DNA of 64,000 nt from Candidatus Rifleibacterium amylolyticum (GCA_009917695.1 JAACJG010000001.1:143219-207218), one strand, 5' to 3'; positions 29,885 through 48,508 are shown, counted from the stretch's first letter. A program made the numbers and translations. The notes: a model not told the origin generated them from the sequence alone.

Positions 29885-32658
29885 CCGAGAATGTTGTCAT
29901 AGCACCCGTCCAAAACGGCATTGCCCGCCGCGAAAACCTGCCGCATCTGGTGGCCGGCTTTTTCATGCTGCTCAAGGCGAGTAACAACCTGCTTTATCTT
30001 TCTGTTCTCACCACTTTTCTCGACAATATCGGTGCTGGCTCACTACCCTGGGTTTATCTGTCAGTTAATGTGGTTTTTATCGTTTTTCAGTTTCAATTCA
30101 TGTCGAGAATTGTCGGTTATGAAGGGCACTGGTTACTCTCTCTGGTTAACTGGCCTGCCGCCGCCCTGTCTTTTGCGGCCGCCCTGATGTTTCCGGCCAA
30201 TACTATGCCGGTGTTGCTGGCATTTCTGGTGATGGCAATGCTGATCGATCTTGTGTCGACTCAGGCTTTTACGGCTATGCTGAACCATTTCTTTTCAGTT
30301 GCCGAGTCGCGCCGGTTTACTCCGGTGATATATGCTTCTGGCAGCTTTGGCTTCATTATCAGCGGTCTGCTGCTCAAATTTGTGCTTGATTTTGTCGGGA
30401 TAAGGGGTCTGCTTGTCGGAAATGGCGCAATTATCCTGGTGTCGGCAATAATTCTGCGACTTCTCAAGCCAATAGAAGAGGCGCGACTGGCCGAGTCAGA
30501 CGAAGCAGATCAGCCAGTCTCGACGGCAGGCGGGGAACAATCAACAGGTGAATCTTCCTGGCAGCACCCGTTGGCAAGGCTTCTCAATATCTCTTCCTTT
30601 CTTATCCTTTTCAACAAATATCTCGTGGATTTCTTGTTCGCAGCTGCTGTTGCGGCCTATTTTACCAGGGGAAACGACCTGGCTGCTTTTATGGGAGTGT
30701 TTGGCGCTTCTGCCGATTTTGCCGTTATCGGCCTGCAGACCTTTGTCATGCACCGGGTTTTCGCTGCCTTTTCCATCGGTAAAATTCTCGCAGCCATGCC
30801 CCTGGTGCTGACTGTGCTCTGCTTTTCAGCTTCCTTCAGTCTCAAGTTCGCCGTCATTGCTACGGTGCAATTTCTGGTGCTGCTGAACAGCAAAAACTTT
30901 ACGGTGCCGGCCACCACCATTCTCATGGGCGTAATCCCTCAGAAACAGCGGGTATATTATCGTCGCGACATGTCTATCGTCTGCTCGATTTCTTCAACTC
31001 TGGTTGGCATTTTTCTTCTGCTGGTGCGAAATTCCGTCGGGGCCGAGGTGCTTTTTCTGATCGCCGCCGTTGTCTATCTCGCCCTGTCGGCAGTTCATTA
31101 TCTTATCGATCAGGCTTATTTGACCACCCTGCGTCGGGCGATAGATAACCGTCAGCTGGATTTTGGCGAAGATCAGGTCGCTTCGTTGCGCTTTTTGCAA
31201 TATGGTGAGCGCCTGCAGCAGTTGCAGCAGCTGCTCATCGATGAAAACCCCAGAATCAGAGGGCGTGCGGTTGAAGAGGTCTCGTTGCTGCCAGCAAATA
31301 CTGCAACTCAATTACTGCTGCCTATGCTCGAAAACGAGAACGATTCGCGTTGTCTGACTGCGGTTGCTCGTAACCTGCTTCAGATCTCACCACAGGCCGC
31401 GGCAATGCACATTCGACGAGTTCTTGCCGAAACCGATGATCAGCGCTTGCGGGCAGATATTATCGAAACTATCGGCAAGGTTCGAGCGCCAGACGTTGGC
31501 GAAGATTTTGTTACGCCATTTCTCGATTCGCCGCATCATCGGGTGAGAGCCAGCGCTATTATCAGCACCATCAGACTGACCCGTCAGTCCGACATGCTGT
31601 CGCGTGCCATGCATAAGCTGGCGGCTATGGCACATGATGCCGAAGAGCTTATGCGTGCTTCGGCCGCAGCTGTGATGGGAGAACTCGGGCTGCCTCTTTT
31701 CGTCCCGGCTCTTGTCGCCCTTGCCGGTGCCGGCGAAACAGTCGTTGCCGGCAACGCTGCTTCAGCACTGGCGCGAATTCATACCCCCGATGCCGTGGTT
31801 GCACTCGAAAATATGCTTTTTCATGAAAACCAGGAGGTGACAGAACGGGTTGAGGGTTTGCTGGCTGCTTCTACGCGGGAGAGTATCAGTCGAATCAGCC
31901 GCCTGTTGCCCGGAATAACGGCAGAAGAACGTCGCCGGCTGACGACCCGTTTGCGCTCAGGCCGTCACCAGGACAGCCAGGAAGTTCTGGCCAACATTCT
32001 CTGTATTGATAATCTTGAGCAGCGGCGCAATCTTATTGCTCTGCTCGAAAAGTCAGACCGCGAAATGGTCAGGCTGATGCAGGCCTGTATAAAAATGGGA
32101 GAAGACGACAGGATACAGCTGACAGTTGAACCATTACTGCTGCTGGCCAGAGAATATGCTGGCAGCAATATGCCGGACTGGGCTGCTCTGCTCGGTATTC
32201 TGGCCGGCGGTACGCTTGAAAAGCCTGAAGATAACGAAGAATTGTTTGAAGCTGCCTGCAGTCTTATTAAAATGTTGTGGTACGAGCGCATTGTCATTGC
32301 AAAGGCCGGCGTCATTGCAGCAGCCAGGGAAAAATGGCAGAACCGCGCTTTGTCGCTGATCAGAATGATTGCCTGCTTTTCATCCGAGCCGGCACCGTTG
32401 AGCAGAAGCATCAACGAGCTCAAGAGCGGAAAAGCCTACGCCAGAGGAATGGCGGCAGAGTACATTGATGCCCGCGCAGGTCACAAGCTGGCGCAGATGA
32501 TTATTCCACTGGTCGATTCCGGGGCTGCTGTGCCTGATGATTTTGCGGCTCTGGTAAGGTTTGCTGCCGGGCTTGGCGTCGAAGCCTCTGAAAATGATCT
32601 GACCGCTGCCCGCGACCGGTTGTTACGATTTGCTGTCATCGAGGAAAACGACAAATGA
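29824..32658 (+). CDS. Polytopic (about 12-TM) permease-like N-terminal domain fused to C-terminal PBS-lyase-type HEAT repeats. The membrane part may be related to TLC/NTT-type or MFS-type transporters.
   Basis: Roughly 12 hydrophobic helices in residues 40-440 are followed by repeated HEAT-like units (NPRIRGRAVEEVSLL..., HHRVRASAIISTIRL..., AEELMRASAAAVMGELGL...). The track start at ATG 29824 overlaps the upstream gene by 61 nt. An in-frame GTG at 29881 overlaps its TGA stop (GTGA), and either start is possible. The stop of this gene overlaps the next start (ATGA). Confidence 0.55.
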   Translation: MGIGAKEGRGRFQSGGQLKVTENVVIAPVQNGIARRENLPHLVAGFFMLLKASNNLLYLSVLTTFLDNIGAGSLPWVYLSVNVVFIVFQFQFMSRIVGYEGHWLLSLVNWPAAALSFAAALMFPANTMPVLLAFLVMAMLIDLVSTQAFTAMLNHFFSVAESRRFTPVIYASGSFGFIISGLLLKFVLDFVGIRGLLVGNGAIILVSAIILRLLKPIEEARLAESDEADQPVSTAGGEQSTGESSWQHPLARLLNISSFLILFNKYLVDFLFAAAVAAYFTRGNDLAAFMGVFGASADFAVIGLQTFVMHRVFAAFSIGKILAAMPLVLTVLCFSASFSLKFAVIATVQFLVLLNSKNFTVPATTILMGVIPQKQRVYYRRDMSIVCSISSTLVGIFLLLVRNSVGAEVLFLIAAVVYLALSAVHYLIDQAYLTTLRRAIDNRQLDFGEDQVASLRFLQYGERLQQLQQLLIDENPRIRGRAVEEVSLLPANTATQLLLPMLENENDSRCLTAVARNLLQISPQAAAMHIRRVLAETDDQRLRADIIETIGKVRAPDVGEDFVTPFLDSPHHRVRASAIISTIRLTRQSDMLSRAMHKLAAMAHDAEELMRASAAAVMGELGLPLFVPALVALAGAGETVVAGNAASALARIHTPDAVVALENMLFHENQEVTERVEGLLAASTRESISRISRLLPGITAEERRRLTTRLRSGRHQDSQEVLANILCIDNLEQRRNLIALLEKSDREMVRLMQACIKMGEDDRIQLTVEPLLLLAREYAGSNMPDWAALLGILAGGTLEKPEDNEELFEAACSLIKMLWYERIVIAKAGVIAAAREKWQNRALSLIRMIACFSSEPAPLSRSINELKSGKAYARGMAAEYIDARAGHKLAQMIIPLVDSGAAVPDDFAALVRFAAGLGVEASENDLTAARDRLLRFAVIEENDK

Positions 32659-33545
32659 AGATAACAATTTTTATAGTAACGCTGCTTGTCATTTTGATGC
32701 CGATTGGCTGGTTTGCAGCCTCAGATTCTGAAATGCTGCATCTTACTCCGATAATTGACGAGGTTTCGCCTCTATATATGGGCGTAATTCCTTTCATTCA
32801 GGCCGACAAACTTCGCGAACAGACGCAGCCGGTCGGTGACTATCTGGCATATCGTATCGGACGACCGGTCAGGCTTATCACTGTGCCTGATTACGAAAGT
32901 CTGGCCCGCCTGCTCGAACTTGGCAAAATTCATATTGCCTGGTTTTCGCATGCTTCGCTTGAAAAGCTGCGGAGAAACCGCGACTGGCAGGTTGTCTGCC
33001 GTCCGGTTCAGTATAACAGCGTGCTTTATAACGGGCAGATAATAGTACGTGATGACAGCCCATATCAGAGCGTGCATGATTTGCGCGGTCGCCGATTTGC
33101 CTATGTCGATAGATTTTCCGGGTCAGGATTTTACTTTCCCAATCTGCTTTTTGCCGCTGAAGGAATAAGGCCACTGGAATTTTTCAGCAATGTCGAATTC
33201 TCGCAAAGCCATCGCTCAAGTCTGCTGGGAGTGATGGAGGGAAGGTATGACGCGGCGGCTGTGTTCTCTTCTGACCTGGTATCTGAAGGCAGCAAAGGCC
33301 TGCGTGTCATCGCCCGCACCGGTCCTATTCCTAACGATCCGCTTGTTGTGCGTTCTGACATGGGTTCTGAACTTAAATCTCAGATAGAGAAAGCCATGTT
33401 GACAATGCACGAAGACGAAAAGGGTATTGCCTGTCTTAAAAGTCTCAAAGTCTTGCGCGGCACCACAAAATACGTTGCTGAAAGCGAAGTGCAGGCTCTT
33501 CTCAAAAAATCCACCTCGCCAGATCAACCAGCCGCCGACAGATAA
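32655..33545 (+). CDS. PhnD/SsuA-like periplasmic substrate-binding protein of the phosphonate ABC-type family. It is used here apparently without cognate permease or ATPase genes.
   Basis: A signal/TM anchor is present (KITIFIVTLLVILMPIGWFAA). A PhnD-like core is present (LYMGVIPFIQADKLREQTQPVGDYLAYRIGRPVRLITVPDYESLARLLELGKIHIAWF...YNGQIIVRDDSPYQSVHDLRGRRFAYVDRFSGSGF). Confidence 0.6.
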   Translation: MKITIFIVTLLVILMPIGWFAASDSEMLHLTPIIDEVSPLYMGVIPFIQADKLREQTQPVGDYLAYRIGRPVRLITVPDYESLARLLELGKIHIAWFSHASLEKLRRNRDWQVVCRPVQYNSVLYNGQIIVRDDSPYQSVHDLRGRRFAYVDRFSGSGFYFPNLLFAAEGIRPLEFFSNVEFSQSHRSSLLGVMEGRYDAAAVFSSDLVSEGSKGLRVIARTGPIPNDPLVVRSDMGSELKSQIEKAMLTMHEDEKGIACLKSLKVLRGTTKYVAESEVQALLKKSTSPDQPAADR

Positions 33546-33573
33546 CATGATTTATTGAGGCTGATACTGAAAT

Positions 33574-34713
33574 GTGGTAGAATGCAGCACTATGAAAAAC
33601 ACTGAAATTCCTTTTTTTCTTGGATACGTCGAACAGGCAATTGGTGGAGCCCAGGATCCTCTGAATCCGCCGATTTCGATCAGCAGAAACGGCACTCTTG
33701 CCAAATGGCGCGGCAAACTCAATTTCATCGATCTCAGGGTCAACGACCCGGCACTCAAAAAAAATGCTGCAGCCTTTGAACAGACTCTTCAGAAGGCCGC
33801 CTCTCTCGAAATCAAGGTTGTCATCACATTGCCAGAGTTCTCGCCGGTCTACTTCGATCTCCCGCCTGAGCCAGAAATCCCGGATCCAAAGCGTCCGGCG
33901 CCGCCGCCGCCTCGTGGAACCATCAAAGATAAACGTCTGACTCACTTCAAGCCGGCTTATCTTGCTTTGCCGTCTGCAATTCAGGGACACCCCTCATACT
34001 ACGCTCTGTCGGTCGAAGAGTGTCTGCCAATAATTGAACTGGCCGCAAAATATGAGGTTAAAGACGTTATTGTTCCTGTTTCAGAACCAGGTGTTTTTCT
34101 TGATCCACAGGCCGAAATCAGATTCAAGAAGGCTTTAAAGGAACTTCACGCAGCTGCTTCCGCTTCATCGATAACACTGCATCTGCGCAATGGCGGTATT
34201 TCACTTTCTGTTTACCGCAAGCTGGCGCGTGAATTTGGCTGTAAATTTGCTTATGATGTTGGAATAGCGCATCTCGAAGGCGATAATATTCTCGACACTT
34301 ATCATAAATTAGATGGCAACATTTCTATTATTTCTTTGCAGCAGGTGTTGCCGGGGCTGGATAAATACAGTGGTCGGCGCGAAGCAATGGATCGGGCGCT
34401 TAAAGAGTATGTCGCCGCCCGCAACGAATACCGTCAGAGCCTGAAAGAAAACGACGAAGGCTATAGCGAAAAGTGCCTCAAGCAGTTTAATTTTGCGCTC
34501 AAGGATTATCAGGAAGCCCGCCGCAATAGCTGCTTCAATCTCGGCTTGTATCAGAGCGGCGATCTCAACCTGGTGCCGTTGCTCAAGGAAATTCGTCGCA
34601 GTATCGAGGCTGGCAGCGAAAAACATGTGCTTCTGGCCATGGTTCCCAATACCCGTAATAATGATTTTGTTGTGCAGAAGGTTGCGCCTGAAAATTTTTC
34701 GGGCGCGTTTTGA
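33574..34713 (+). CDS. Hypothetical protein. It may have a TIM-barrel (xylose-isomerase-like) fold, but this is very tentative.
   Basis: The track ORF starts at GTG 33574, and an ATG at 33592 (MKNTEIP...) is more likely. Alternating beta-alpha-like segments are present (KVVITLPEF, VKDVIVPVSEPGVFL, SITLHLRNGG, FAYDVGIAHLEGDN). A Pro-rich insert is present (PEPEIPDPKRPAPPPPRG). Confidence 0.4.
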   Translation: MVECSTMKNTEIPFFLGYVEQAIGGAQDPLNPPISISRNGTLAKWRGKLNFIDLRVNDPALKKNAAAFEQTLQKAASLEIKVVITLPEFSPVYFDLPPEPEIPDPKRPAPPPPRGTIKDKRLTHFKPAYLALPSAIQGHPSYYALSVEECLPIIELAAKYEVKDVIVPVSEPGVFLDPQAEIRFKKALKELHAAASASSITLHLRNGGISLSVYRKLAREFGCKFAYDVGIAHLEGDNILDTYHKLDGNISIISLQQVLPGLDKYSGRREAMDRALKEYVAARNEYRQSLKENDEGYSEKCLKQFNFALKDYQEARRNSCFNLGLYQSGDLNLVPLLKEIRRSIEAGSEKHVLLAMVPNTRNNDFVVQKVAPENFSGAF

Positions 34714-34725
34714 TGCGGTGTTAGC

Positions 34726-35868
34726 ATGAAAAAATCAATACTCTGTCTGGCTTTTTGCGTGTCGTTGCTGATGCCGGTGCATGGCCGGAACGATGACGCT
34801 CAGAGCGGTGGAGTGACAGCGCCTTATACTCTGAATAACTGTTTGACCCGGGCCGAAGAGTTGTTTCGTGCCAATAAATATTCAGAGGCTTTGATTTTTT
34901 ATTATGAAGGCATGGGTATGACCGCTAATGAAGAGATCAAGGCCCGCTTGCACTTTCGTATCGGTGAATGCCTTGAGGCACTCAGGCGATTTGATTTTGC
35001 AACTTACCATTATAAACTTGCCATACAGGGAAAACTACCGGAACTGCTGGTAAGTCGAGCGATCATGAAGCTCGAACACCTGCCCGAGCTGGCACAGACT
35101 GAAGAGGCCACCCGTCTGTTCAATCGCGCCATGGATCTATACCGTCGTCGCAATATCCGCGATGCCATCGACAGCTATCTTGCCAGCCTCCGACTGATGC
35201 CGACTCTCATGGCACAGGACGAATCAGGCCTTATCGAAGATGCTGTAAAATACCTGACTTTTTTGTCTGAGAGCAAAGAGCGAGAGCCCGATCGTCTGCT
35301 TAAGCTTGCTACTTTTCTTGAATTGCGTGGTGATGTCGAAAAGGCAATCGAAACATTGCAGCAGATTTCGATCATCTATCCTGAATCAGATCAGGCGCGC
35401 CAGGCCGACGAAAAGCTCGAACAGTTTACACAGAGACGTACCGCTTATGTCGAACCGGTAAAACCGGCTGATGCCCTGAGCGAAGTCTATGGCGAAGAGC
35501 CGGTGCTGATATTCAACGAAATGTTTGAGTTCAGAAATGCCGGTACAATTTCGCGTCAGCTGGAAAACGCCGCGTTTACCTTGCGCGCAATCAATGAACG
35601 CGCGGGCATTCCAGCTGACAGATTCGAAGTGTTTTCGGTAACCCTCGGAATGGGCAGCGATCAGCGTGACTTCGTATTCTCAGCTGAAGAGGGCATTGAT
35701 CAGAGAGAGCTTAGTTTCGCCTCTGGCGGCATTAAATATACGGTTACGTTTACCTCGATAAACCAGACTAGCGGGTATATTCAGGATCTTTATGGTGACG
35801 GTCGTCGCGCGGTCACGCTTTTTTCGAATGTCGGGGTACAGCTCAAAATTGAGCGGCAGCAGGACTGA
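34726..35868 (+). CDS. Secreted helical-repeat (TPR-like) protein.
   Basis: The signal peptide reads MKKSILCLAFCVSLLMPVHG. The rest has a TPR-like helical repeat character (ALIFYYEGMGMT...RLHFRIGECLEAL...ATYHYKLAIQG). Confidence 0.4.
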   Translation: MKKSILCLAFCVSLLMPVHGRNDDAQSGGVTAPYTLNNCLTRAEELFRANKYSEALIFYYEGMGMTANEEIKARLHFRIGECLEALRRFDFATYHYKLAIQGKLPELLVSRAIMKLEHLPELAQTEEATRLFNRAMDLYRRRNIRDAIDSYLASLRLMPTLMAQDESGLIEDAVKYLTFLSESKEREPDRLLKLATFLELRGDVEKAIETLQQISIIYPESDQARQADEKLEQFTQRRTAYVEPVKPADALSEVYGEEPVLIFNEMFEFRNAGTISRQLENAAFTLRAINERAGIPADRFEVFSVTLGMGSDQRDFVFSAEEGIDQRELSFASGGIKYTVTFTSINQTSGYIQDLYGDGRRAVTLFSNVGVQLKIERQQD

Positions 35869-36076
35869 CGGAGGAAAGCTATAATGTTTTTTCAGATTTT
35901 TGGCTATGCTTTCGGGTTGTTTATGGCTGTACATTATTATGTCTTTCTCGTGTTTCTGCCTGCTTTGATAGACAGTTTTCTCGACGATAAATAATTTGGG
36001 CAAATTTTGCGGTTTTCTGTTATCATATCTGGAACGCCTTGGCGGACATTCCTGTTAGAGACCTTGGAGCGTGGAT

Positions 36077-38296
36077 ATGAGAACAAGATTTTCTGGGGAA
36101 GACCTCAACAGCCTGAGTCGGGAAGAGTTGTACGAACTCGCGCAAAAACTGGAGCTGAAGGTACGCAAAAACAGCTCACGTGAAAAGCTTGTCGAAGCCC
36201 TGCTGCCGCATGCGCAGGAGCCTTCCGCCAAAAAGGCTTCTCCCAGAAAGACTGTAGTCGCAAAACCGGCTTCGGCAGCTGAAAAAAAGTCTGCTACAAA
36301 AGCAACTGCCAAGACTAAAGCCGCTGCAGCCAAAAAAACTGAAGACACAGAAAAAAAAGCAGGCGCCGCCAAATCGACTGCCGCCAGAAAAGTTGTTAAA
36401 ACCGAGAAATCCCCTGCATCCAGGAAACCTGCAATCTCTGACAAATCTACTCCGGCCGGAGAATCAGATAAATCTGAAAAAGCTGCGGGTGCAAAAAAAT
36501 CAGCAGCTCCGAAAAAATCTGCAGAAGCTAAAGTTACCACCGCTCAAAAAAGTGGCGCTGCAAAAACAGCTGTGGCAAAAGCCTCTGATCGAGATCGCGA
36601 AGCTGTCTCTCCGGTAAAAAAACGAGGCCGACCAGCCAAAGCTGAGAATAAAGCCGTTATTGCCGAAGAGAAGACAGTTGCTAAAAGAACTACCAGAAAA
36701 TCTGCTGCAGAAAAATCAGTTGAAGAGAATACACCGGTCAGAGCGCCACGTGGTCGGCCTGCGAAGGGTGATGCAAAAGCCTCGACAAAATTGAGCGCTC
36801 CTGAGAAAAAAAGTTCAGCAAAAGCTCCCAGAAAAGCTGTAGAGCCAGCCAGAAAAACATCAGAAAAAAAGCCGGATAAATCTGAAAAAAATAAAGAAGC
36901 GTTGGCAAAGTCAGCGCAAGACAAGGCAGTTGCCGCTGAAACGCCCGTTTCCAGAAAACGCGGTCGCCCAGCTAAAAGCGCTGTTGCAGCAAAGTCTAAG
37001 CCGGAGCAGGAACTGATAGAAGAAAAGTCAGATGTTTCTGCCTGTGATGTTTCAGAAGCAGCAGTAAAAGGGCTTACCCGTGGATTCGCTAAAAAGTCCG
37101 AAGATTCTTCCCAGACTCCCAGAAGTAAAAAGGGTGCTGAGGTGTTCAAAGATGGTGTGGCAGTGCCGGTTGAATCTGCAGATGCGCAGAAAATAGCTTC
37201 GCCGGCTGCCGATAAAATCGAGCGCGAGCGCGCAAAACGTTATTCTTCGCTGAAAACAACAATGGAAGTGCCGATTTTCCAGGCGGTAGCGCCGATTGAA
37301 GCGGCATCTACCATAAGCGAAGAAGAACTGACCGGTGAATTGCCGCAGGAATACGGTGAAACCCGCATTGTACTCCAGATTCGTGATCCGCACTGGGCCT
37401 ACGCGTATTGGGAAGTCCCACGAGTCGAGCTCAAGCGCATTGAACTCGAAGTTGGCATTTTTGAGTTTGCCCATTCACATTTTGTTCTTCGTCTGCATAA
37501 CGTTTCAGAGGGCTTTTCACAGGAGATAAAACTCAGCGAACATGCCCGTAACTGGTATATATACCTGGAAAATCCGCAGACTGTTTATCAGGTAGAGCTC
37601 GGTATGCAGAGCCCGTCTGAAGGCTATACTTTTATCGCCCTTTCGAATCTGGTGCAGACGCCGCCCGACCGCGTTGCCGAAAACTGGGCTGCGCCAGTTG
37701 TTTATGAGCCCGAGTCTTTACCAGAACCAGTCGAACGGCTCGGCGGTCATGAAATTCTCGAATCACCGCCGCAGGCTCCAGGAATCCCTCAAATAACAGA
37801 ACCGGCGCAAGTCTATTTTATCAGTGTTTCCGGCGATCCGGTTCCACATCCAGGTTCTTCCGATCTTCTGGCCGGTCAGCGCTTGCAACCTCTCGAACAG
37901 CCTTCTGCTGAAGCGCCTTTTGCTATGCCTGGCTCCTTAAATATGCCCGGCTCTTTTGTCATGCCAGGTTCACTCAATATGCCAACTTCTTTCGCGCCCA
38001 CCTCATCTGACTGGACCTCACCGGGCGCCGACAGTTTTGGAGCCCGACCGACCGTAGCAGATGAAGACGACATCTTTCTCATGGCCGCGGTCGAAGTAAT
38101 AGTATATGGCCGGGTAAAAACTGGCTGTGACCTGACATTCCAGGGGCATCCGCTGCAGGTTCGACCCGATGGTTCTTTCAGTCTGCGCATGGCGTTGCCT
38201 TTTGACAGTGGTCACAGTATCGATCTGGTTGCCACCGATCCTCGCACCGGGAAACAGCGTCTGATCAAAGCGGCCGTCAGTCTAAAAAAATCCTGA
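36077..38296 (+). CDS. DUF4912-like protein with an N-terminal Rho_N/SAP-like helix pair and a 300-aa Lys/Ala-rich histone-H1-like region containing three AT-hook (RGRP) motifs.
   Basis: The N-terminus reads DLNSLSREELYELAQKLELKVRKNSSREKLVEAL. Low-complexity K/A/S/T/E stretches are interrupted by KKRGRPAKA, APRGRPAKG and RKRGRPAKS. The C-terminal 330 aa is globular (IVLQIRDPHWAYAYWEVP...YIYLENPQTVYQVELG...), which I associate with DUF4912, a family commonly encoded next to GH57 genes. The track start is GTG 36071. The ATG at 36077 has GGAG 7 nt upstream. Confidence 0.5.
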   Translation: MRTRFSGEDLNSLSREELYELAQKLELKVRKNSSREKLVEALLPHAQEPSAKKASPRKTVVAKPASAAEKKSATKATAKTKAAAAKKTEDTEKKAGAAKSTAARKVVKTEKSPASRKPAISDKSTPAGESDKSEKAAGAKKSAAPKKSAEAKVTTAQKSGAAKTAVAKASDRDREAVSPVKKRGRPAKAENKAVIAEEKTVAKRTTRKSAAEKSVEENTPVRAPRGRPAKGDAKASTKLSAPEKKSSAKAPRKAVEPARKTSEKKPDKSEKNKEALAKSAQDKAVAAETPVSRKRGRPAKSAVAAKSKPEQELIEEKSDVSACDVSEAAVKGLTRGFAKKSEDSSQTPRSKKGAEVFKDGVAVPVESADAQKIASPAADKIERERAKRYSSLKTTMEVPIFQAVAPIEAASTISEEELTGELPQEYGETRIVLQIRDPHWAYAYWEVPRVELKRIELEVGIFEFAHSHFVLRLHNVSEGFSQEIKLSEHARNWYIYLENPQTVYQVELGMQSPSEGYTFIALSNLVQTPPDRVAENWAAPVVYEPESLPEPVERLGGHEILESPPQAPGIPQITEPAQVYFISVSGDPVPHPGSSDLLAGQRLQPLEQPSAEAPFAMPGSLNMPGSFVMPGSLNMPTSFAPTSSDWTSPGADSFGARPTVADEDDIFLMAAVEVIVYGRVKTGCDLTFQGHPLQVRPDGSFSLRMALPFDSGHSIDLVATDPRTGKQRLIKAAVSLKKS

Positions 38297-38305
38297 TCTA
38301 GCCTG

Positions 38306-39895
38306 ATGAATAACACCACTGGTTACCTTTCACTGATACTGCATGCTCATCTGCCTTTTGTCCGCCATCCTGAACACGCCGACATGATGGAGGAAAGATG
38401 GCTTTTCGAAGCTATCACTGAAACTTATGTGCCCCTGATCGAGGTTTTTGGCAAGCTTTGCGATGATGAGATTGATTTTCGCATCACCATGACGCTGACA
38501 CCGCCTCTGGTGAACATGCTTGCTGACGACCTGCTGATTGCCCGCTATTCACGACACCTCGCTTTACTCGAAGAACTGGCGGAAAAGGAAGTCGAGCGCA
38601 CTCGCTGGATGCCACAGTTTCATGCTTCGGCGCTGATGTACCGCGATAAGTTTCAGCGTATTCGCAAGATTTTCAACTTCTGGCAGGGCAATCTGGTCAA
38701 GGCTTTCAAAAGCTTTCAGGATGCCGGCGTGCTCGAAATCATCACCTGCTGCGCAACCCATGGTTTCCTGCCACTTATCAACGATTTCAGAGAGGCTGTG
38801 CGCGCCCAGATCGATATGGCTGTGCGTGACTATAAAAAGCATTTTGGCCGTCAGCCACGTGGTATCTGGCTGGCAGAGTGTGCCTACAACCCGGGCGATG
38901 ACGAGATCCTCAAGGAATTCGGTCTCGAATATTTTTTTACCGATACCCATGGCATTTTGTTTGCCGACCCGAGACCAACTTATGGGGTATATGCGCCGAT
39001 TGCCTGTCCGTCTGGCGTCGTCGCATTCGGTCGCGATGTCGAGAGCAGTCGACAGGTCTGGTCCGCGCATGAAGGCTATCCCGGCGATCCTGCCTATCGC
39101 GATTTTTATCGAGATATTGGCTTTGACCTTGAATTTGATTATATCAAACCTTACATTCACGAGTCCGGTCATCGATTGAATACTGGTATCAAGTATCATC
39201 GTATTACTTCGCGCGAAATAGAAGACAAAGAGCCTTACAACTATCAGGAAGCAATGGCGAGAGTTGCCGTGCATGCCGGGCATTTTCTCTGGTGCCGCGA
39301 GCGCCAGATCGAATATCTGACCGGCAACATGGAACGTAAGCCAATCGTCGTGTCGCCATACGATGCTGAGCTGTTCGGGCACTGGTGGTATGAGGGGCCG
39401 GATTTCATTCATCTGGTTCTGCGCAAAATTGCGCTCGAAAGTAAGGTCGTCCGACTTGCCACTCCCTCTGATTATCTCGATGAATACCCACGTAATCAGA
39501 AATCTACTCCGTCTTTGTCTTCATGGGGCCACAAAGGCTATAACGAAGTCTGGCTTGATGAGAGCAATGCCTGGATATACCCGCATATGCACAAGGCCTC
39601 TGAACGCATGATCGAGCTGGCAAATTCGTTCCCGGAAGCAGAAGGGCTGCAGTTGCGTGCTCTCAATCAGGCTGCCCGCGAACTCATGCTGCTGCAATCT
39701 TCTGACTGGGCCTTCATCATGAAGACCGGTACTACGGTAGAATACGCGCACAAACGCACTAAAGATCATGTATTCAGATTTACCAGGCTTTATGGTGACA
39801 TCAGAAACGGCAGCATAAACGAGAACTGGCTGCGTGAGGTCGAACGCCGTGACAATATTTTTCCCGAGATGGATTACCGTATTTATCGCAGCTGA
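38306..39895 (+). CDS. Glycoside hydrolase family 57 protein (1,4-alpha-glucan branching enzyme type, DUF1957-containing).
   Basis: The N-terminal catalytic region is characteristic of GH57 (GYLSLILHAHLPFVRHPEHADMMEERWLFEAITETYVPLIEVF...TLTPPLVNMLAD). The 529 aa length is typical for GH57 branching enzymes. Confidence 0.7.
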   Translation: MNNTTGYLSLILHAHLPFVRHPEHADMMEERWLFEAITETYVPLIEVFGKLCDDEIDFRITMTLTPPLVNMLADDLLIARYSRHLALLEELAEKEVERTRWMPQFHASALMYRDKFQRIRKIFNFWQGNLVKAFKSFQDAGVLEIITCCATHGFLPLINDFREAVRAQIDMAVRDYKKHFGRQPRGIWLAECAYNPGDDEILKEFGLEYFFTDTHGILFADPRPTYGVYAPIACPSGVVAFGRDVESSRQVWSAHEGYPGDPAYRDFYRDIGFDLEFDYIKPYIHESGHRLNTGIKYHRITSREIEDKEPYNYQEAMARVAVHAGHFLWCRERQIEYLTGNMERKPIVVSPYDAELFGHWWYEGPDFIHLVLRKIALESKVVRLATPSDYLDEYPRNQKSTPSLSSWGHKGYNEVWLDESNAWIYPHMHKASERMIELANSFPEAEGLQLRALNQAARELMLLQSSDWAFIMKTGTTVEYAHKRTKDHVFRFTRLYGDIRNGSINENWLREVERRDNIFPEMDYRIYRS

Positions 39896-39907
39896 TAGAG
39901 AGGTGTT

Positions 39908-42853
39908 ATGAGCAAGTCAGGTTTTTATGCTGCCATAAAATCAGTTTTTATTGCTTCTTCAAGCTCAAAGGCACAGGAAACTGTGCGAACAGGCCTGATT
40001 TTCGGCTTCATAATTGCATCCTTATCGCTTTTGCTCCTGATGACGGGTGTTTACAACGAAGTCGACACCTATGTTAATACCATGGTCATGCAGATGGCCA
40101 TTGAAGACAAAGAAGAGATGCATCCACGAATATGCATAGTAAAAAAGGATCAGGCTACTTCAGAGCTGCTTGAAAAAAATCCAGATCGTGCCGAGTTTGC
40201 TTCGTTGTTCAGGTTTCTTGGCCAGCCCCAGATAATCCAGCGGCCACATGGCGGAGCCGGAAGAGGCCTTCGTGTGCTTGACATCGGCATTGGTTGTTTC
40301 ACCGACCTCAAGGACCTCCCCTTTAAAACAGGTTATGACGAGTGGGGTTCGTTTGCCGATTTTTCAGATCAGGCTTCGGCTACTCATATCGAGAAATTCG
40401 ATCAGCGCAACTGGCATTCCAGCAGCCGCCGGGTGCGCGATTATTTTAAGGCGAACCCTGATGCAGAAACTTTCTCTGGCTTGATCCAGGTCCGCAGCTA
40501 TCTATGGAACCCGCTTGCCAAAAATGCCTTTACAGCATTGGCTGGTGGTGGCCAGTATCTGGTTCTACCAACTTTGGCTACGCGCTGGGATGATCCTGAG
40601 CTGAAAAAATACCTGCAGAATTTAAGCGACAAAAATAACAGTACGGACAATGCGCCGCCTGCAGGCATTGCTGAAAGTATCGAGCTGCTTAACCGTTGGC
40701 AGAATCTATTTGACAATCTAAATCGCATCGATGTTGATCTTCACATTGTGATGTTTGAAAAGCCTGGAGTTTTGCTCAGCATTTCTCTGGACCTGGTGGT
40801 TGACCCGCCAACTCCAGAGTATATTATCGAGCCTGCTTCTGTTATTGGCTTCGACTTTGTCCTCCAGGGCGAGAAGTCTGACGCCGTAGACAATGCACTG
40901 GTTGCTGCGATTGAATCAACTGAAAGTCAGGTGGTTCTGGCGGCTCATACCGCACTGGAAGAAGATGCGAGAGATTATTCGCAGGAAAGCAAAACTGGTG
41001 ATGACGCCTTTGCCCTTGGTAGAAAAGCTTCTGCGGTTATGCGCCATATCATGCCACATGAGAAGTTTATCAAAGGCAACGCCATGACGGCTGTCATCGA
41101 CATTGCACTTGGCAGCAAGAGCTTTGTCACCATGGTGCCGATGTTTATTGCCAATCATCAGGAAAAACGGCTTATACCTTCATTCAGTCTCAAGATTGCG
41201 ATGCTCGAACTCGACCGATGTCACCCAGAGCTCAAGCCATCTTATAGCGAAGAGATGAACAGAGTACTCGCGGCGATATATGACGACGTTGCTTCAGGCA
41301 AGTTTCGTGGACCTCTGACAATTCACGATCGCAGTATCCCGGTTGACAGTCGTGGCATGATGCTTATTGACTTCTACGGTTCTACTTCTGTCGGTCGCTA
41401 CAGATGGCCCCGCATCGGATCAGTTTCTCTGTATGAATGTCTGGATGAGAAAACACTCAGACGCCTGTTAAAGAAGATGCCCGAGAAAAACGAGCTCGAT
41501 CCAATCAAGGCGCATTCCAGAACTCTTTACGGAGGCATGAACAGCTTCAATAAATCTGAACGTATAATGCTGGTCGGCCCTTTTGAAATCACCGATTTCG
41601 ACTATTTCCCGACTCCCATGGAGCTGTATACCCCCTATAGAGCGCAGAAAGAACAGTTGATGGGTATTGAAATTCATGCCAACGCCATCATCAATATCCT
41701 TGATAAGCTTTATATAAAACATCCAAATGGTTATCACACGGCTTTTGCTCTCTTCGTATCCTGTATTCTTCTCGGTTTCATTCTCGACATTCTGACGCCA
41801 GTCGCCGGCTTCTTTCTTGTCGTTGCTTTCATGGGCGGCGCTTTCTGGCATTCATTCAACTCCTATCATTATGCGCGCCAGATGTTTAACAGCTCGGCTC
41901 TGCTGTTCAGCTACCCGGCCATCTGGGCGATCGCGACCCTGACCAACTACGTGCGCCAGCGCGCCCGCGCCCAGAAGACCAAAGACATGTTTTCGCGCTT
42001 CGTCGCGGCTGACGTCGTGCAATACATGCTCGACAACCCCGACATGGTTAAGCCGGGCGGAGAAAAGGTCGAGTTGACCATTTTCTTCTCTGACGTCGCC
42101 GGTTTTACTTCGATTTCTGAGGCTCTGACCCCTGAAGAACTCGTCGTTCTTCTTAATGAATATCTCGGCGCCATGACCGATCTGCTCTTCGAATACGGGG
42201 GCACCCTCGACAAATTCATCGGCGACGCAGTAATGGCCTTCTGGAACTTTCCGCGCAAACAGGAAGATCACGCGGTTCGCGCTTGTCTATGTGCTCTGGC
42301 CATGCAGCGCAAGATCAACGAGCTGCAGATCGGCTGGGCGGAAAGAGGCCTGCCGCGGGTTTCTGCACGTGCCGGCCTGAATACGGCAAACGTGGTTGTC
42401 GGCTATATGGGTTCTTCAAAGGCGCAGATGAACTTCACCTGTATGGGCGATGGCGTCAATCTCGCCTCCCGTCTTGAAGGCGCCAACAAAGAATACGGCA
42501 CGGCAATGATGGTGAGTGACGCTACTTTCCAGAGGGCAAAACATGCGGTTGTCGGCCGATTTCTCGATTTTCTTGCCGTCAAAGGAAAAAAGGAACCGGT
42601 CAAGGTGCACGAGCTTGTTTGCGAAGTCGGCAAAGAACCGCCGGGCTGGAACGAGCTGATCGAACTTTACAATCGCGCGATTCAGCTGCATCTCGAACGC
42701 AAATGGGATGAAGCCATCGCGACCTTCGAACAGATTCTCGCGCGCTGGCCGGATGATGGGCCCAGTCGCACCTATATTGCGCGCTGCAACGAGTACAAAG
42801 AGAACCCGCCCCCCGAAGGATGGGACGGCAGGTATATCCTTACCCACAAATAA
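39908..42853 (+). CDS. CHASE2-sensor class III adenylate/guanylate cyclase with a C-terminal TPR-like segment.
   Basis: An N-terminal TM is followed by a large extracytoplasmic CHASE2-like domain. Three TM helices span residues about 600-680. The CYC catalytic core reads VELTIFFSDVAGFTSISEALTPEELVVLLNEYLGAMTDLLFEYGGTLDKFIGDAVMAFWNFP...GLNTANVVVGYMGS...NFTCMGDGVNLASRLE. Confidence 0.8.
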   Translation: MSKSGFYAAIKSVFIASSSSKAQETVRTGLIFGFIIASLSLLLLMTGVYNEVDTYVNTMVMQMAIEDKEEMHPRICIVKKDQATSELLEKNPDRAEFASLFRFLGQPQIIQRPHGGAGRGLRVLDIGIGCFTDLKDLPFKTGYDEWGSFADFSDQASATHIEKFDQRNWHSSSRRVRDYFKANPDAETFSGLIQVRSYLWNPLAKNAFTALAGGGQYLVLPTLATRWDDPELKKYLQNLSDKNNSTDNAPPAGIAESIELLNRWQNLFDNLNRIDVDLHIVMFEKPGVLLSISLDLVVDPPTPEYIIEPASVIGFDFVLQGEKSDAVDNALVAAIESTESQVVLAAHTALEEDARDYSQESKTGDDAFALGRKASAVMRHIMPHEKFIKGNAMTAVIDIALGSKSFVTMVPMFIANHQEKRLIPSFSLKIAMLELDRCHPELKPSYSEEMNRVLAAIYDDVASGKFRGPLTIHDRSIPVDSRGMMLIDFYGSTSVGRYRWPRIGSVSLYECLDEKTLRRLLKKMPEKNELDPIKAHSRTLYGGMNSFNKSERIMLVGPFEITDFDYFPTPMELYTPYRAQKEQLMGIEIHANAIINILDKLYIKHPNGYHTAFALFVSCILLGFILDILTPVAGFFLVVAFMGGAFWHSFNSYHYARQMFNSSALLFSYPAIWAIATLTNYVRQRARAQKTKDMFSRFVAADVVQYMLDNPDMVKPGGEKVELTIFFSDVAGFTSISEALTPEELVVLLNEYLGAMTDLLFEYGGTLDKFIGDAVMAFWNFPRKQEDHAVRACLCALAMQRKINELQIGWAERGLPRVSARAGLNTANVVVGYMGSSKAQMNFTCMGDGVNLASRLEGANKEYGTAMMVSDATFQRAKHAVVGRFLDFLAVKGKKEPVKVHELVCEVGKEPPGWNELIELYNRAIQLHLERKWDEAIATFEQILARWPDDGPSRTYIARCNEYKENPPPEGWDGRYILTHK

Positions 42854-46527: not shown

Positions 46528-47087
46528 ATAGTGTGCCCGGCATGGGCGATAACTCGGCGGTGCAAGTCCGCTACAGGCTTGGCAGCAGGAACTGTTAGCC
46601 AAAGGCAAGGGTGTCCACCGTGAGGTGGAATCTGAAGGAAGCCGGAGGCAAACCCTCGGCCCGATGAACAAGAACCGTATATAAGGCACTACGTGACTGG
46701 ACGAGCTTGCTATACAAAGCAAAGTCCGATACTGCCCGAGGTCTGCGGTGTAGATACGGCGGGTATATGAGGGGAAAGTTATCGTTCTTACCCGGGGAGA
46801 TCTTGTAGTGGTCGCCGACAAGAGGGATGGTTAGACAACCCACAGCGACAGGTGGGGCAGCAATGCCCCACTGAACTACAAGAAGTCAGCAGAGGCCATA
46901 GTAACGCGGCGATGCGCGAAGGGCCGAACAATGGTTAATCTTCGATCGTATGGATGGCGTGATGACGCAACGACTGCCGAATACTGTTCCAACAGGCTAC
47001 CTCTGCAATGATACGGTGGAACCGGAAAGTAACAGAGGAGCGCATAGCGCCGTTATACCAAAAATCGAAAAAAAAATCGAAACGAAG

Positions 47088-47957
47088 ATGGGTGCAGATG
47101 CTTTGCTCGAAATGGTGCTAGACAGAAATAATCTGAATCAGGCATACAAGCGGGTGAAGCAGAATGGTGGTGGCGCTGGCATTGACGGGATGACGGTCGA
47201 TCAAATGCTGCCTTATCTGAGAGCTCACGGGAGCAGTCTGCTGGAAGAACTTGCAAGCGGAAAATACCGTCCCCAACCTGTTAAAAGAGTTGAGATTCCG
47301 AAACCAGACGGGGGAAAACGACTGCTTGGTGTACCAACGGTAATAGACCGTATGGTTCAGCAGGCAATCGTGCAGGTATTACAACCGATATTCGAGCCGA
47401 CTTTCTCTGACAGCAGTTTCGGGTTTCGTCCGAAGCGAAGTGCACAGCAGGCGATCAAGCGGGCGAAGGAATATTATGAGCGAGGATACTCCGATGTCTT
47501 AGACATTGATCTCGCCAGATATTTCGACACCGTAAACCACAACCTGCTGATCAGAATGGTCAGGGAGCATGTGAAAGACGAACGGATAATCAACCTGATA
47601 CGCAAATTCCTTCGGAGTGGCGTTCTGGCTGGTGGTCTCGTAAGTCCGACAGAGGAAGGAACCCCGCAAGGTGGCAATCTTTCTCCGTTGCTCAGCAATA
47701 TTTACCTCACGAGCTTTGACAGACTTCTGGAAAGCAGAAATCATCGGTTCGTGAGGTATGCGGATGACTGCAATATCTATGTCAAAAGTCGTAGAGCTGC
47801 TGCCAGAGTGATGGCCGGATGTGTCAAATTCCTCGAAGGAAAGCTTAAACTCAAGGTTAATCGTGAAAAGAGCCGTGTCGGAAGCCCGCTAAAGCTGAAA
47901 TTTCTTGGTTTCTCACTGTATAAAAGGCAAGAAAACAGGAATAAGACCACATCATAA
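47088..47957 (+). CDS. Group II intron-encoded protein, reverse-transcriptase domains (fragment 1 of a frameshifted ORF).
   Basis: RT0/RT1 reads LNQAYKRVKQNGGGAGIDGMTVDQ. RT3/4 reads LDIDLARYFDTVNHNLL. RT5 reads FVRYADDCNIYVKS (YADD). The track ORF begins at ATG 46950, and the typical IEP start MGADALLEMVL is at 47088. Confidence 0.75.
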   Translation: MGADALLEMVLDRNNLNQAYKRVKQNGGGAGIDGMTVDQMLPYLRAHGSSLLEELASGKYRPQPVKRVEIPKPDGGKRLLGVPTVIDRMVQQAIVQVLQPIFEPTFSDSSFGFRPKRSAQQAIKRAKEYYERGYSDVLDIDLARYFDTVNHNLLIRMVREHVKDERIINLIRKFLRSGVLAGGLVSPTEEGTPQGGNLSPLLSNIYLTSFDRLLESRNHRFVRYADDCNIYVKSRRAAARVMAGCVKFLEGKLKLKVNREKSRVGSPLKLKFLGFSLYKRQENRNKTTS

Positions 47958-48363
47958 GCCCCTTGAGACCTTCAAAAATAGGGTTAGAATGATTACCAGT
48001 CGCAGAAGAGGAAGATCGGTCAGTCAGATTCTACAGGAAACAAAAGTTTTCACCACAGGCTGGCTGGGCTACTATGCCATTGCAGATATGAGGGAGCGTA
48101 TATCCGAACTTAACGAATGGATAAGACGGAGAATACGTCAGTATACATGGAAGCAATGGAAGAAGATCAGCGCGAAATTCCGAAATCTGAAGCAGCTTGG
48201 GATTCCTGAAGAGCGGTCATGGATGTGGGCGAATACCAGGTTGGGTTACTGGAGAACGGCTGGGAGCCCTGTGCTGACAAGGTCATTAACAAACAAATAC
48301 CTCGTATCTATCGGATATGAAGACATATCAGTAAGATACGAGGCATTGCATCAAAACCATTGA
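47905..48363 (+). CDS. Group II intron-encoded protein, thumb/X maturase domain (fragment 2, in a +1 frame relative to the RT part). No endonuclease domain is present.
   Basis: The X-domain reads GWLGYYAIADMRERISELNEWIRRRIRQYTWKQWKK...RLGYWRTAGSPVLTRSLTNKYLVSIGY. It ends 1 nt before domain V. The frames switch within 47908..47925, which contains an A4 run. An IEP that lacks the endonuclease domain is typical of class C introns. Confidence 0.65.
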   Translation: MVSHCIKGKKTGIRPHHKPLETFKNRVRMITSRRRGRSVSQILQETKVFTTGWLGYYAIADMRERISELNEWIRRRIRQYTWKQWKKISAKFRNLKQLGIPEERSWMWANTRLGYWRTAGSPVLTRSLTNKYLVSIGYEDISVRYEALHQNH

Positions 48364-48508
48364 ACCGCCGTATACCGAACGGTACGTACGGTGGGGTGAG
48401 AGGACAATGGGTGAAATAATCACCCATTTCCTACTCGATTGCTCGCGTTTTGTCTCTTCTTAGCTTCAGCGAAACAGAGCAGGCGTGTTTGTTTTTCTTG
48501 CGTAATCT

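Follow-up and report, generated by a model that had tools for sequence, protein, structure and literature searches.

In this study, the 64,000-nt stretch of DNA that was analysed (the window), from Candidatus Rifleibacterium amylolyticum, was found to encode a 739-aa member of the DUF4912 family, directly upstream of a GH57 glycogen-branching-enzyme-type gene. On the reading preferred here, this member is a non-enzymatic, modular protein. Its domain anatomy, the predicted disorder of its tail, the basic tails found across the family and the pairing of the two genes across phyla are the established part of this work. That pairing tentatively suggests a protein which would hold glycogen synthesis beside the chromosome. 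We propose, with a confidence somewhat short of even, that the protein is attached to nucleic acid and would serve the branching enzyme, or the glucan which that enzyme makes, as a non-catalytic partner, by analogy with PhaM/PhaF on PHB granules and AlgP on polyphosphate granules.

Gene and domain architecture

The gene occupies 36077..38296 (+), stop codon included. Its ATG at 36077 lies inside an open reading frame of 36071..38296 (+) with the ribosome-binding sequence GGAG 7 nt upstream, and the product is 100% identical to GQF41_0165, a hypothetical protein of the same organism (NCBI). Searched as a whole, the 739-aa protein had no sequence match in the PDB. Six parts follow one another from the N to the C terminus: a Rho_N-type helix-loop-helix, a Lys/Ala-rich tail, a short conserved helix, the DUF4912 domain, a Pro/Ser-rich linker and an Ig-like domain.

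The N-terminal domain (aa 1-48; 36077..36220, +) is a helix, extended loop and helix of the Rho_N (SAP-like) type. AlphaFold2 predicted a Rho_N-like fold with helices at aa 7-12, 15-24 and 35-45 (pLDDT 93-95), and the domain is 96-98% identical in two homologues. Scanned alone, aa 1-50 missed the gathering score of Rho_N (PF07498; 13.5 bits vs 24.9, E=0.07), and a Fan1_SAP match of the N-terminus was also below threshold (E=0.037). Homologous N-termini that align with this one do score above the PF07498 threshold, and a family profile matched the N-termini of the Rho structures 7OQH and 3L0O in the PDB (E=0.002-0.004); the match to M. tuberculosis Rho (7OQH) extends into the insertion region of that protein. 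The Rho_N/SAP-type N-terminus read from the sequence in an earlier note was thus borne out by the predicted fold, the homologues and the family profile, with its own HMM score remaining sub-threshold. In a Pfam architecture scan of 100 family representatives, Rho_N was detected in 28.

Behind the tail lies a clade-conserved middle segment (aa 331-425; 37067..37351, +), which is 43-93% identical across the clade, has one predicted helix (aa 376-390, pLDDT 67-76) and has no Pfam match. The DUF4912 domain (PF16258) itself, an FN3/Ig-like beta-sandwich with a helical insert, spans aa 426-536 (37352..37684, +) and scored 86.3 bits (cutoff 29.4, E=2.4e-24) over profile positions 1-115 of 118. Next comes a disordered acidic linker of 119 aa (aa 537-655; 37685..38041, +; 17.6% P, 12.6% S, net charge -11, pLDDT <50), in which four MP(G/T)S hexapeptide repeats were located at 37919-37993 (+). 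The protein is closed by a second, Ig-like beta-sandwich (aa 656-739, folded core approximately 667-739; 38042..38293, +), which was predicted with pLDDT 87-97 and in which the family-invariant YG, DG and P residues align. The earlier note had taken DUF4912 for the C-terminal domain and assumed a single globular domain at that end; instead, DUF4912 is central, and two beta-sandwich domains are separated by the linker. The equivalent C-terminal domain matched Glucodextran_B in 66 of the 100 representatives (Pfam, best E=4.5e-8), and the C-terminal domain of this protein did not reach E<=1 with the same model. Both folds are generic FN3/Ig sandwiches, which do not single out a carbohydrate-binding module.

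The basic tail and its AT-hooks

The tail (aa 46-330, 285 aa; 36212..37066, +) is net basic and Lys/Ala-rich, with 20% K, 6% R, 22.8% A and 12.6% acidic residues and a net charge of +38. AlphaFold2 predicted no secondary structure in it (pLDDT approximately 40-47). In homologues whose DUF4912 domains are 87-95% identical, the tail is only 18-37% identical. Tandem Repeats Finder detected no DNA tandem repeat within the gene; hence the tail did not arise by a recent expansion of repeats. The Linker_histone, Hc1 and HC2 models gave no match at E<=0.1, and the resemblance to histone H1 is compositional only.

Three AT-hook cores are embedded in the tail: RGRP in VKKRGRPAKAE (aa 183; 36623..36634, +), conserved in the closest homologues only; RGRP in RAPRGRPAKGD (aa 225; 36749..36760, +), found in several clade members; and RGRP in SRKRGRPAKSA (aa 295; 36959..36970, +), the positionally conserved hook. 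Of the three KRGRPAK motifs reported earlier, all three are present as RGRPAK, only two read KRGRPAK and the remaining one is PRGRPAK. The cores have basic flanks, and AT_hook (PF02178) was matched with 22 bits against a gathering score of 17.4; HMM searches therefore placed both AT_hook and DUF4912 above their gathering scores. From the composition of the window's proteins, 0.006 chance occurrences of RGRP would be expected in 739 aa, and the 33 large ORFs of the window contain a single further RGRP. Of the 15 homologues listed, 14 have RGRP aligned with the third hook, in a tail that otherwise drifts to approximately 20% identity, and up to 8 RGRP hooks are found within the clade.

The family comprises 9,843 clusters at 50% identity (E<=1e-3). 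The fusion of such a tail to DUF4912 had been called unexpected, yet a basic region before DUF4912 is the family norm: a net charge of at least +10 was found in 81 of the 128 diverse representatives in the charge survey (approximately 63%; median +15), and the region is net basic in all 75 scorable Verrucomicrobiota loci. What is specific to Riflebacteria is the length of approximately 300 aa and the hooks. The protein has 420 aa before DUF4912 against a family median of 125 aa (approximately 3-fold), and RGRP hooks occurred in 2/128 representatives, being nearly absent outside Riflebacteria. The same tail position is K/A/P-rich in some lineages and carries RGRP hooks in others; the HC2 model (chlamydial H1-like) was matched by one of the 100 scanned representatives.

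The conserved pair with a GH57 branching enzyme

The GH57 gene (38306..39895, +) begins 9 nt past the stop codon of the DUF4912 gene, in the same strand and frame. Its product matched Glyco_hydro_57 (E=5e-42) and BE_C (E=6e-44) and contains the catalytic Glu and Asp motifs WLAEC (aa 188) and DAELFGHWW (aa 353). The nearest solved structure was 2B5D (E=1e-171), and 5WU7, 3N8T, 1UFA and 3P0B were also matched; the NCBIfam equivalog cutoff was not reached (359 vs 1000). A CHASE2 adenylate/guanylate cyclase gene (39908..42853, +) starts 12 nt further downstream; each of the three Riflebacteria loci examined has it behind GH57. A promoter-like site, TGGGCA-18-TATCAT with an upstream TG, was located at 35997..36026 (+) by consensus match only, and no terminator-like site was found on the + strand between 36077 and 39083. 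With this 9-nt gap, the promoter-like site upstream and no terminator-like site between them, the two genes are probably transcribed as one unit.

The linkage to GH57 pointed out in the earlier note proved to be both tight and conserved across phyla. A GH57+BE_C gene lies directly downstream on the same strand in two further Riflebacteria loci, one locus of Hydrogenedentota, one of Bacillota and four loci of other lineages. Of 80 Verrucomicrobiota loci, 68 also carried the pair; 77 of the 80 were informative, having 2 kb or more of sequence downstream, which makes the count 68 of 77. The 80-locus search returned loci of the Verrucomicrobiota type only (a few MAG records bear other taxon labels), so this large synteny count rests on one phylum. 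ORF clustering in the same 80 loci gave no third conserved gene beside the pair. In three other loci the DUF4912 gene does not adjoin GH57, and some GH57-linked members, such as one from Bacillota, have no basic tail. Among the family clusters looked up, few bore an organism name and none provided a cyanobacterial locus for a synteny comparison. Phosphate/phosphonate binding-protein domains recur close to or within family members.

Comparison with known systems

Proteins of PF16258 are often annotated as "Rho termination factor N-terminal domain-containing protein". They share with the present protein the core of basic region, sometimes Rho_N, DUF4912, linker and Ig-like domain, as well as the position upstream of a GH57 branching enzyme; the tail described here differs from their norm in being about three times the median length and hooked with RGRP. 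No published function was found in the literature searched for the family name. The family is absent from the alpha-glucan review and the glycogen literature searched, and no paper was found that names both GH57 and Rho termination factor. The recently described glycogen regulator CipG of Cyanobacteria is a pentapeptide-repeat protein and unrelated.

Precedents exist in PhaM, PhaF and AlgP, each a single protein that attaches to a storage granule by one end and, through its H1-like tail, to DNA by the other (PMC13052382; PMC3556143; PMC9239181). Nucleoid tethers have been described for bacterial PHB and polyphosphate granules and none for glycogen in a 2025 review of organelle positioning, in which the word "glycogen" occurs 0 times (PMC13052382). 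PhaM of Cupriavidus necator, PhaF of Pseudomonas putida and AlgP of P. aeruginosa join a polymer-system module to a Lys/Ala-rich tail that binds DNA non-specifically, and their genes stand beside those of the polymer's enzyme (PMC13052382); a like design is predicted here, but the tail is N-terminal instead of C-terminal and the polymer would be glycogen. No phasin or PhaM domain was matched in Pfam and no tandem repeat of the KPAA type was found, and the likeness is one of design only.

Among regulators, CarD of Myxococcus xanthus is HMGA-like and likewise joins a disordered DNA-binding region, with four RGRP AT-hooks, to a folded domain for protein interaction; related species have an H1-like tail instead of the hooks. 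In the account of Garcia-Heras 2009 given in PMC4374960, K/A/P-rich (H1-like) and RGRP-hook tails are functionally interchangeable DNA-binding modules in CarD. In contrast to CarD, the present protein lacks the CarD_CdnL_TRCF RNA-polymerase-binding domain, and CarD has no link to glucan metabolism. The RGRP cores with basic flanks and the Lys/Ala/Pro-rich disorder are also common to eukaryotic HMGA and linker-histone H1 tails; the H1 globular domain is absent here and the tail, with its acidic residues, has the lower charge density. With Rho, the N-terminal helix-loop-helix subdomain is homologous at the family level. Neither the RNA-binding OB fold nor the RecA-type hexameric ATPase of Rho gave a Pfam or NCBIfam match, so the protein is not a Rho factor.

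Proposed role and alternatives

We believed that the protein might work as follows. Both beta-sandwich domains would most likely make the contact with the branching enzyme or with the alpha-glucan particle. The Rho_N-type domain, the polycationic tail and the three AT-hooks would most likely bind nucleic acid, chiefly AT-rich DNA of the nucleoid in its minor groove. In this way either the branching of glycogen or its particles would be retained on the nucleoid. In favour of this reading are the domain anatomy, the operon layout, the gene pair kept across phyla, the basic tails of the family, the exchange of tail types between lineages, the conserved position of hook 3 and the precedent of PhaM, PhaF and AlgP. 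The earlier suggestion of a tether from glycogen to the nucleoid or polyphosphate, or of a nucleoid-associated role, fits the anatomy of the protein. Against a tether stand the generic FN3/Ig folds, the GH57-linked members that have no basic tail, the DUF4912 genes that do not adjoin GH57, the silence of the glycogen literature searched, and the charge density of the tail, +0.13 per residue; the C-terminal tails of histone H1 lie well above this value. A broader claim, which we regard as doubtful, is that DUF4912 proteins are widespread unrecognised glycogen organisers, non-catalytic proteins whose polycationic tail brings to the nucleoid either the GH57 enzyme or alpha-glucan particles as they form, in the way of PhaM/PhaF for PHB and AlgP for polyphosphate, and that the Riflebacteria tail was independently upgraded with eukaryote-style AT-hooks.

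The tail could instead bind polyphosphate or acidic membrane lipids and not DNA, or could be a charged brush that keeps glycogen particles soluble and separate. Its sequence drifts fast with composition and net charge kept, as expected of a bulk physical role, the H1-like AlgP is located on polyphosphate granules (PMC13052382), and the phosphate/phosphonate binding-protein domains mentioned above recur in or near family members. We consider this unlikely: the conserved position of hook 3 and the multiplication of hooks to as many as 8 in the clade are better explained by a specific ligand than by a simple brush, and the folded helix-loop-helix at the tip of the tail is highly conserved. The Rho_N domain could also indicate RNA instead of DNA, and basic disordered regions bind these two nucleic acids equally readily. 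Rho_N and the disordered region would then bind RNA in the manner of the basic insertion domains that some Rho factors have at the N-terminus. The protein would act on the mRNA of its own operon, or would form condensates of RNA and protein in which the branching enzyme is concentrated, and would not be tied to the nucleoid. The match of the family profile to Rho N-termini, continuing into the insertion region of 7OQH, points in this direction, as does the label "Rho-like" given to the family in Cyanobacteria (PMC13613805). Against it, AT-hooks are known above all for binding DNA in the minor groove, 72 of the 100 representatives have no Rho_N, and the protein has neither the OB domain nor the ATPase of Rho. 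The family is moreover described as unable to terminate transcription by itself (PMC13613805), and altogether an RNA-directed function seems quite unlikely to us.

We thought it very unlikely that the protein is a nucleoid-associated or transcriptional protein connected to GH57 through the common operon alone, without physical contact with the enzyme or with glycogen. The AT-hooks and H1-like composition, which recall the Myxococcus regulator CarD, and the cyclase gene in the same operon would suit such a protein. However, five phyla or more have kept the pair and no other neighbour is conserved, a pattern usual for genes whose products are coupled physically or in function, tail-less members are still linked to GH57, and Pfam gave no recognised DNA-binding fold or RNA-polymerase-binding domain. 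That the tail is an annotation artefact, with the true start near aa ~400 and the Lys/Ala-rich stretch untranslated, is extremely improbable. Low complexity does yield long spurious ORFs, including 36055-36540 and 36544-37149 on the opposite strand, but the 739-codon frame runs uninterrupted from a start with a ribosome-binding site, and the conserved N-terminal domain ahead of the tail is confidently folded. The tail was also found in frame in homologues at 36-88% identity despite many insertions and deletions, with the hooks conserved and the third in place, which upholds its reading as coding sequence.

To our knowledge, branching enzymes of GH57 do not themselves contain a carbohydrate-binding module. 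If the protein is indeed a tether or partner of the branching enzyme, this would explain how these enzymes cope without one, and would give a handle on the placement and partitioning of bacterial glycogen. It would also be the second bacterial case, after CarD, of AT-hooks and H1-like tails swapping. The family has approximately 10,000 sequence clusters, usually basic-tailed and nearly always preceding a GH57 branching enzyme. Even should the tether or partner reading be wrong, its conserved pair would still flag it as an accessory factor in the metabolism of alpha-glucan.

Domain Organization of the DUF4912 Protein

The gene studied here occupies an ORF at 36071..38296 (+), with its ATG at 36077 and a GGAG 7 nt before it, and encodes a protein of 739 aa that is 100% identical to the NCBI entry GQF41_0165 ("hypothetical protein") of Candidatus Rifleibacterium amylolyticum, from which the window comes. 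Long ORFs were also present on the opposite strand at 36055–36540 and 36544–37149; these are by-products of low-complexity codons, which likewise explain the AT skew of 0.36 across 36001–37000. The Pfam scan placed DUF4912 at aa 426–536 (E = 2.4e-24) and AT_hook above the gathering score, and the NCBIfam scan of the protein gave no match. Judged by its sequence, the protein is a member of DUF4912 (Pfam) with bona fide AT-hook motifs.

Two AlphaFold2 models, one of aa 400–739 built with 19 sequences and one of the full length built with 41 sequences, agreed with each other. The predicted parts were a helix, extended loop and helix at aa 1–48 (pLDDT 93–95), an unstructured segment at aa 51–372 (about 40–47), a single helix at aa 376–390 (67–76), the DUF4912 beta-sandwich with a two-helix insert at aa ~430–533 (92–97), a Pro/Ser-rich acidic linker at aa 534–665 that is predicted to be disordered (below 50), and a second small beta-sandwich at aa 667–739 (87–97). 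The earlier note had described one globular C-terminal domain. This part is indeed predicted to be globular, but it consists of two domains, with DUF4912 as the inner of them. Four hexapeptides of the form MP(G/T)S, FAMPGSLNMPGSFVMPGSLNMPTSF, are repeated at 37919–37993 (+) (aa 615–639) in the linker that precedes the C-terminal domain, and in other lineages Ser-rich runs such as SSGALSS are found at the corresponding position.

A Rho_N/SAP-like N-terminus had also been proposed. The Pfam matches of the N-terminus alone were sub-threshold (Rho_N, E = 0.07; SAP subdomain, E = 0.037). Rho_N was, however, present in homologues aligned to this N-terminus, and the family profile matched solved Rho structures in their N-terminal subdomain (E = 0.002–0.004). 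By predicted fold and family profile, the N-terminal domain is Rho_N-like. Pfam detected neither the Rho RNA-binding domain nor the ATPase in the protein, and no recognisable catalytic domain was present. Identity as a Rho factor, linker histone, phasin-type tether or CarD-family protein was ruled out, because the defining domains are absent (Pfam).

Basic Tail and AT-Hooks

Lys makes up 20%, Arg 6% and Ala 22.8% of the tail at aa 46–330, whose net charge is +38. Copies of RGRPAK lie at aa 183, 225 and 295, and these are the three AT-hooks that had been noticed from the sequence. The composition of the proteins encoded in the window predicts only 0.006 RGRP per 739 aa, and one other RGRP was found among 33 large ORFs of the window. 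Because the motif is so rare by composition, the hooks are real and not a product of chance.

The tail is coding sequence, as the earlier note had taken it to be: homologues of 36–88% overall identity keep a single frame despite many insertions and deletions. No DNA tandem repeat was found in the gene. In the homologues P0005–P0010, identity to the window protein was 87–92% for DUF4912, 68–81% for the C-terminal domain and 67–80% for the N-terminal domain, and 18–22% for the tail. The hook at aa 295, which is nearest the folded part, kept its column in the alignment in 14 of 15 displayed homologues. Rapid drift at constant composition, with a single short motif conserved, is the pattern expected of a functional disordered region, and these comparisons argue that the tail is translated and under selection.

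Basic Tails in the DUF4912 Family

The profile from DUF4912 to the C-terminus matched 9,843 clusters (50% identity) at E ≤ 1e-3 and 2,513 at E ≤ 1e-30. Members were found in Riflebacteria, Verrucomicrobiota, Omnitrophota, Hydrogenedentota, Planctomycetota (Gemmataceae), Auribacterota and Bacillota. The family has been reported across Cyanobacteria, where it was called "Rho-like" and was not assigned a function (PMC13613805), and our literature search returned no paper linking DUF4912 to GH57. We rated the window protein as a variant of a known, uncharacterised family; the more valuable leads are the family-wide basic tail and the pairing with a GH57 branching enzyme across phyla.

A Pfam scan of 100 representatives recovered DUF4912 in every one. 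It assigned a Glucodextran_B-like domain to the C-terminus of 66 (best E = 4.5e-8) and Rho_N to 28, and SAP and the chlamydial H1-like HC2 model matched one each. Across 128 representatives, the region N-terminal to DUF4912 had medians of 125 aa in length and +15 in net charge, and in 81 of them its net charge was at least +10. In all 75 scorable Verrucomicrobiota loci this region was basic as well, its final 120 aa carrying a charge of +4 to +23. This indicates that a basic tail on DUF4912 is the rule, and the fusion is not "unexpected", as had been thought. Whether the tail is lineage-specific has a divided answer. The basic tail itself is not, but RGRP hooks scarcely occur outside the Riflebacteria clade. 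Within it, 28/45 members carry one or more, with a maximum of eight, versus a single hook in 2/128 representatives outside it. The Riflebacteria homologue P0041 contains eight near-identical 22-aa repeats with an RRGRPPK AT-hook in each (PRRGRPPKAKPEAPVPAPVAPA), so hook number grows by recent tandem duplication in this clade. Before DUF4912, the window protein has 420 aa, net +40 and three hooks; an orthologue at the same genomic position in the Riflebacteria family Ozemobacteraceae has 418 aa in all and a short tail without hooks. The window protein is an extreme, lineage-specific elaboration of the family tail.

Another DUF4912 architecture was seen in the homologues P0053, P0089, P0120 and P0184 and in the related locus L092 (5001–8435): a signal peptide and PstS-like PBP_like_2, in P0053 also a transmembrane segment and a WD40-type propeller, then one to six DUF4912 repeats and a C-terminal Ig-like domain. 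The L092 gene adjoins a phosphonate/NMT1-type ABC transporter, not GH57, and a phosphonate-binding-protein gene likewise lies near the window gene (32655–33545).

Linkage to the GH57 Branching Enzyme

The GH57 glucan branching enzyme gene noted earlier was confirmed directly downstream at 38306..39895 (+), encoding GH57 and BE_C and starting 9 nt past the DUF4912 stop. Its nearest solved structure is the Thermotoga GH57 enzyme 2B5D (E = 1e-171), it also matches the GH57 chains 5WU7, 3N8T, 1UFA and 3P0B, and the WLAEC and DAELFGHWW motifs are kept. Consensus scanning found no terminator-like site between the two genes, and a promoter-like site (consensus match only) lies just upstream of the DUF4912 gene.

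Among the related loci, GH57 and BE_C follow DUF4912 directly on the same strand in L001 and L091 (Riflebacteria), L088 (Hydrogenedentota), L090 (Bacillota), L003, L005, L007 and L093, but not in L002, L089 and L092. The large synteny count covered one phylum, Verrucomicrobiota: in species-representative genomes, GH57 was directly downstream in 68/80 loci, or 68/77 of those with at least 2 kb after the DUF4912 gene, and no third gene was conserved across the 80. DUF4912–GH57 is a two-gene module that survives across phyla. In two loci the pair sits within a larger alpha-glucan cluster: upstream of it, L003 (3836–10913) has a second GH57 of the 4-alpha-glucanotransferase type and a CBM48-bearing debranching enzyme of the GlgX type, and L093 (5001–10448) has a second GH57 with DUF3536 downstream.

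Proposed Role

Besides its helix–loop–helix tip and polycationic disordered tail, the window protein comprises a flexible linker and two small beta-sandwiches, and its coupling to the GH57 branching enzyme is both tight and widespread. GH57 branching enzymes are not known to have the CBM48 module that GH13 branching enzymes carry, and RGRP hooks are well known to bind in the minor groove of DNA. We propose that the beta-sandwiches bind the GH57 enzyme or glucan, and that the tail and N-terminal tip bind nucleic acid. The latter step draws on the hooks and on two precedents. K/A/P-rich tails and RGRP hooks take the same position in different DUF4912 lineages, and in Myxococcus CarD an H1-like tail and an RGRP hook can be exchanged with equivalent function (Garcia-Heras 2009, as cited in PMC4374960). 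PhaM, PhaF and AlgP each attach to a storage granule by one end and to DNA by an H1-like tail at the opposite end, and cells that lack them have fewer, larger or clumped granules (PMC13052382, PMC3556143, PMC9239181). The DUF4912 protein probably acts in functional partnership with the GH57 enzyme or its product, and we lean towards a tail that binds nucleic acid or another polyanion. The full nucleoid-tether model is tentative, and we would sooner expect some part of it to fail: the Bacillota member adjoining GH57 has no basic tail, the charge density of the tail is modest (12.6% acidic residues), and the beta-sandwich folds say nothing about the ligand.

Of the other explanations, the one we weighted highest, while considering it unlikely, is that the tail forms a charged brush or binds polyphosphate or membrane lipid; a tail that drifts fast but keeps its composition and net charge would suit this, and the conserved hook argues for a specific ligand instead. 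An RNA-directed role through Rho_N and the basic disordered region is somewhat less probable, and the Rho domain that binds RNA is missing. That a nucleoid or transcription protein is merely co-expressed with GH57 we doubt strongly, given the recurrence of the pair across phyla. An annotation artefact could be imagined for a tail of such low complexity and is scarcely credible given the kept frame.

Gene Block and Surroundings

Seven co-directional genes with gaps of 9–82 nt occupy 32655–42853 (+), in the order phosphonate-type binding protein, 379-aa protein, TPR lipoprotein, 36-aa ORF, DUF4912, GH57 and CHASE2 adenylate/guanylate cyclase, and this block is conserved in the Riflebacteria loci L001 and L091. 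The strongest terminator-like hairpin of the region (34683–34707 (+), an 11-bp stem then TTTT, consensus match) falls within the final codons of the 379-aa ORF, immediately ahead of the TPR gene; therefore, the block may not be a single transcription unit. In 3/3 Riflebacteria loci (window, L001 and L091) the cyclase is the next gene after GH57, a position that may point to a connection between cyclic nucleotides and glucan metabolism. The 36-aa hydrophobic ORF MFFQIFGYAFGLFMAVHYYVFLVFLPALIDSFLDDK (35884–35994 (+)), between the TPR lipoprotein and DUF4912 genes, recurs almost unchanged at the corresponding place in L001 (7811–7921) and L091 (4729–4839), although the DUF4912 proteins of these loci share only 32–42% identity with that of the window; the ORF probably encodes a conserved microprotein of the membrane.

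Elsewhere in the window, a group II intron lies at 46614–48439 (+) (Rfam D1–D4, 153 and 65 bits; domain V–VI, 47.5 bits), with a reverse-transcriptase ORF of 335 aa between the Rfam matches (46950–47957 (+)). Two adjacent giant acidic ORFs lie on the reverse strand, one of 1,535 aa with net −93 (53205–57812 (−)) and the other of 1,616 aa with net −85 (57874–62724 (−)).
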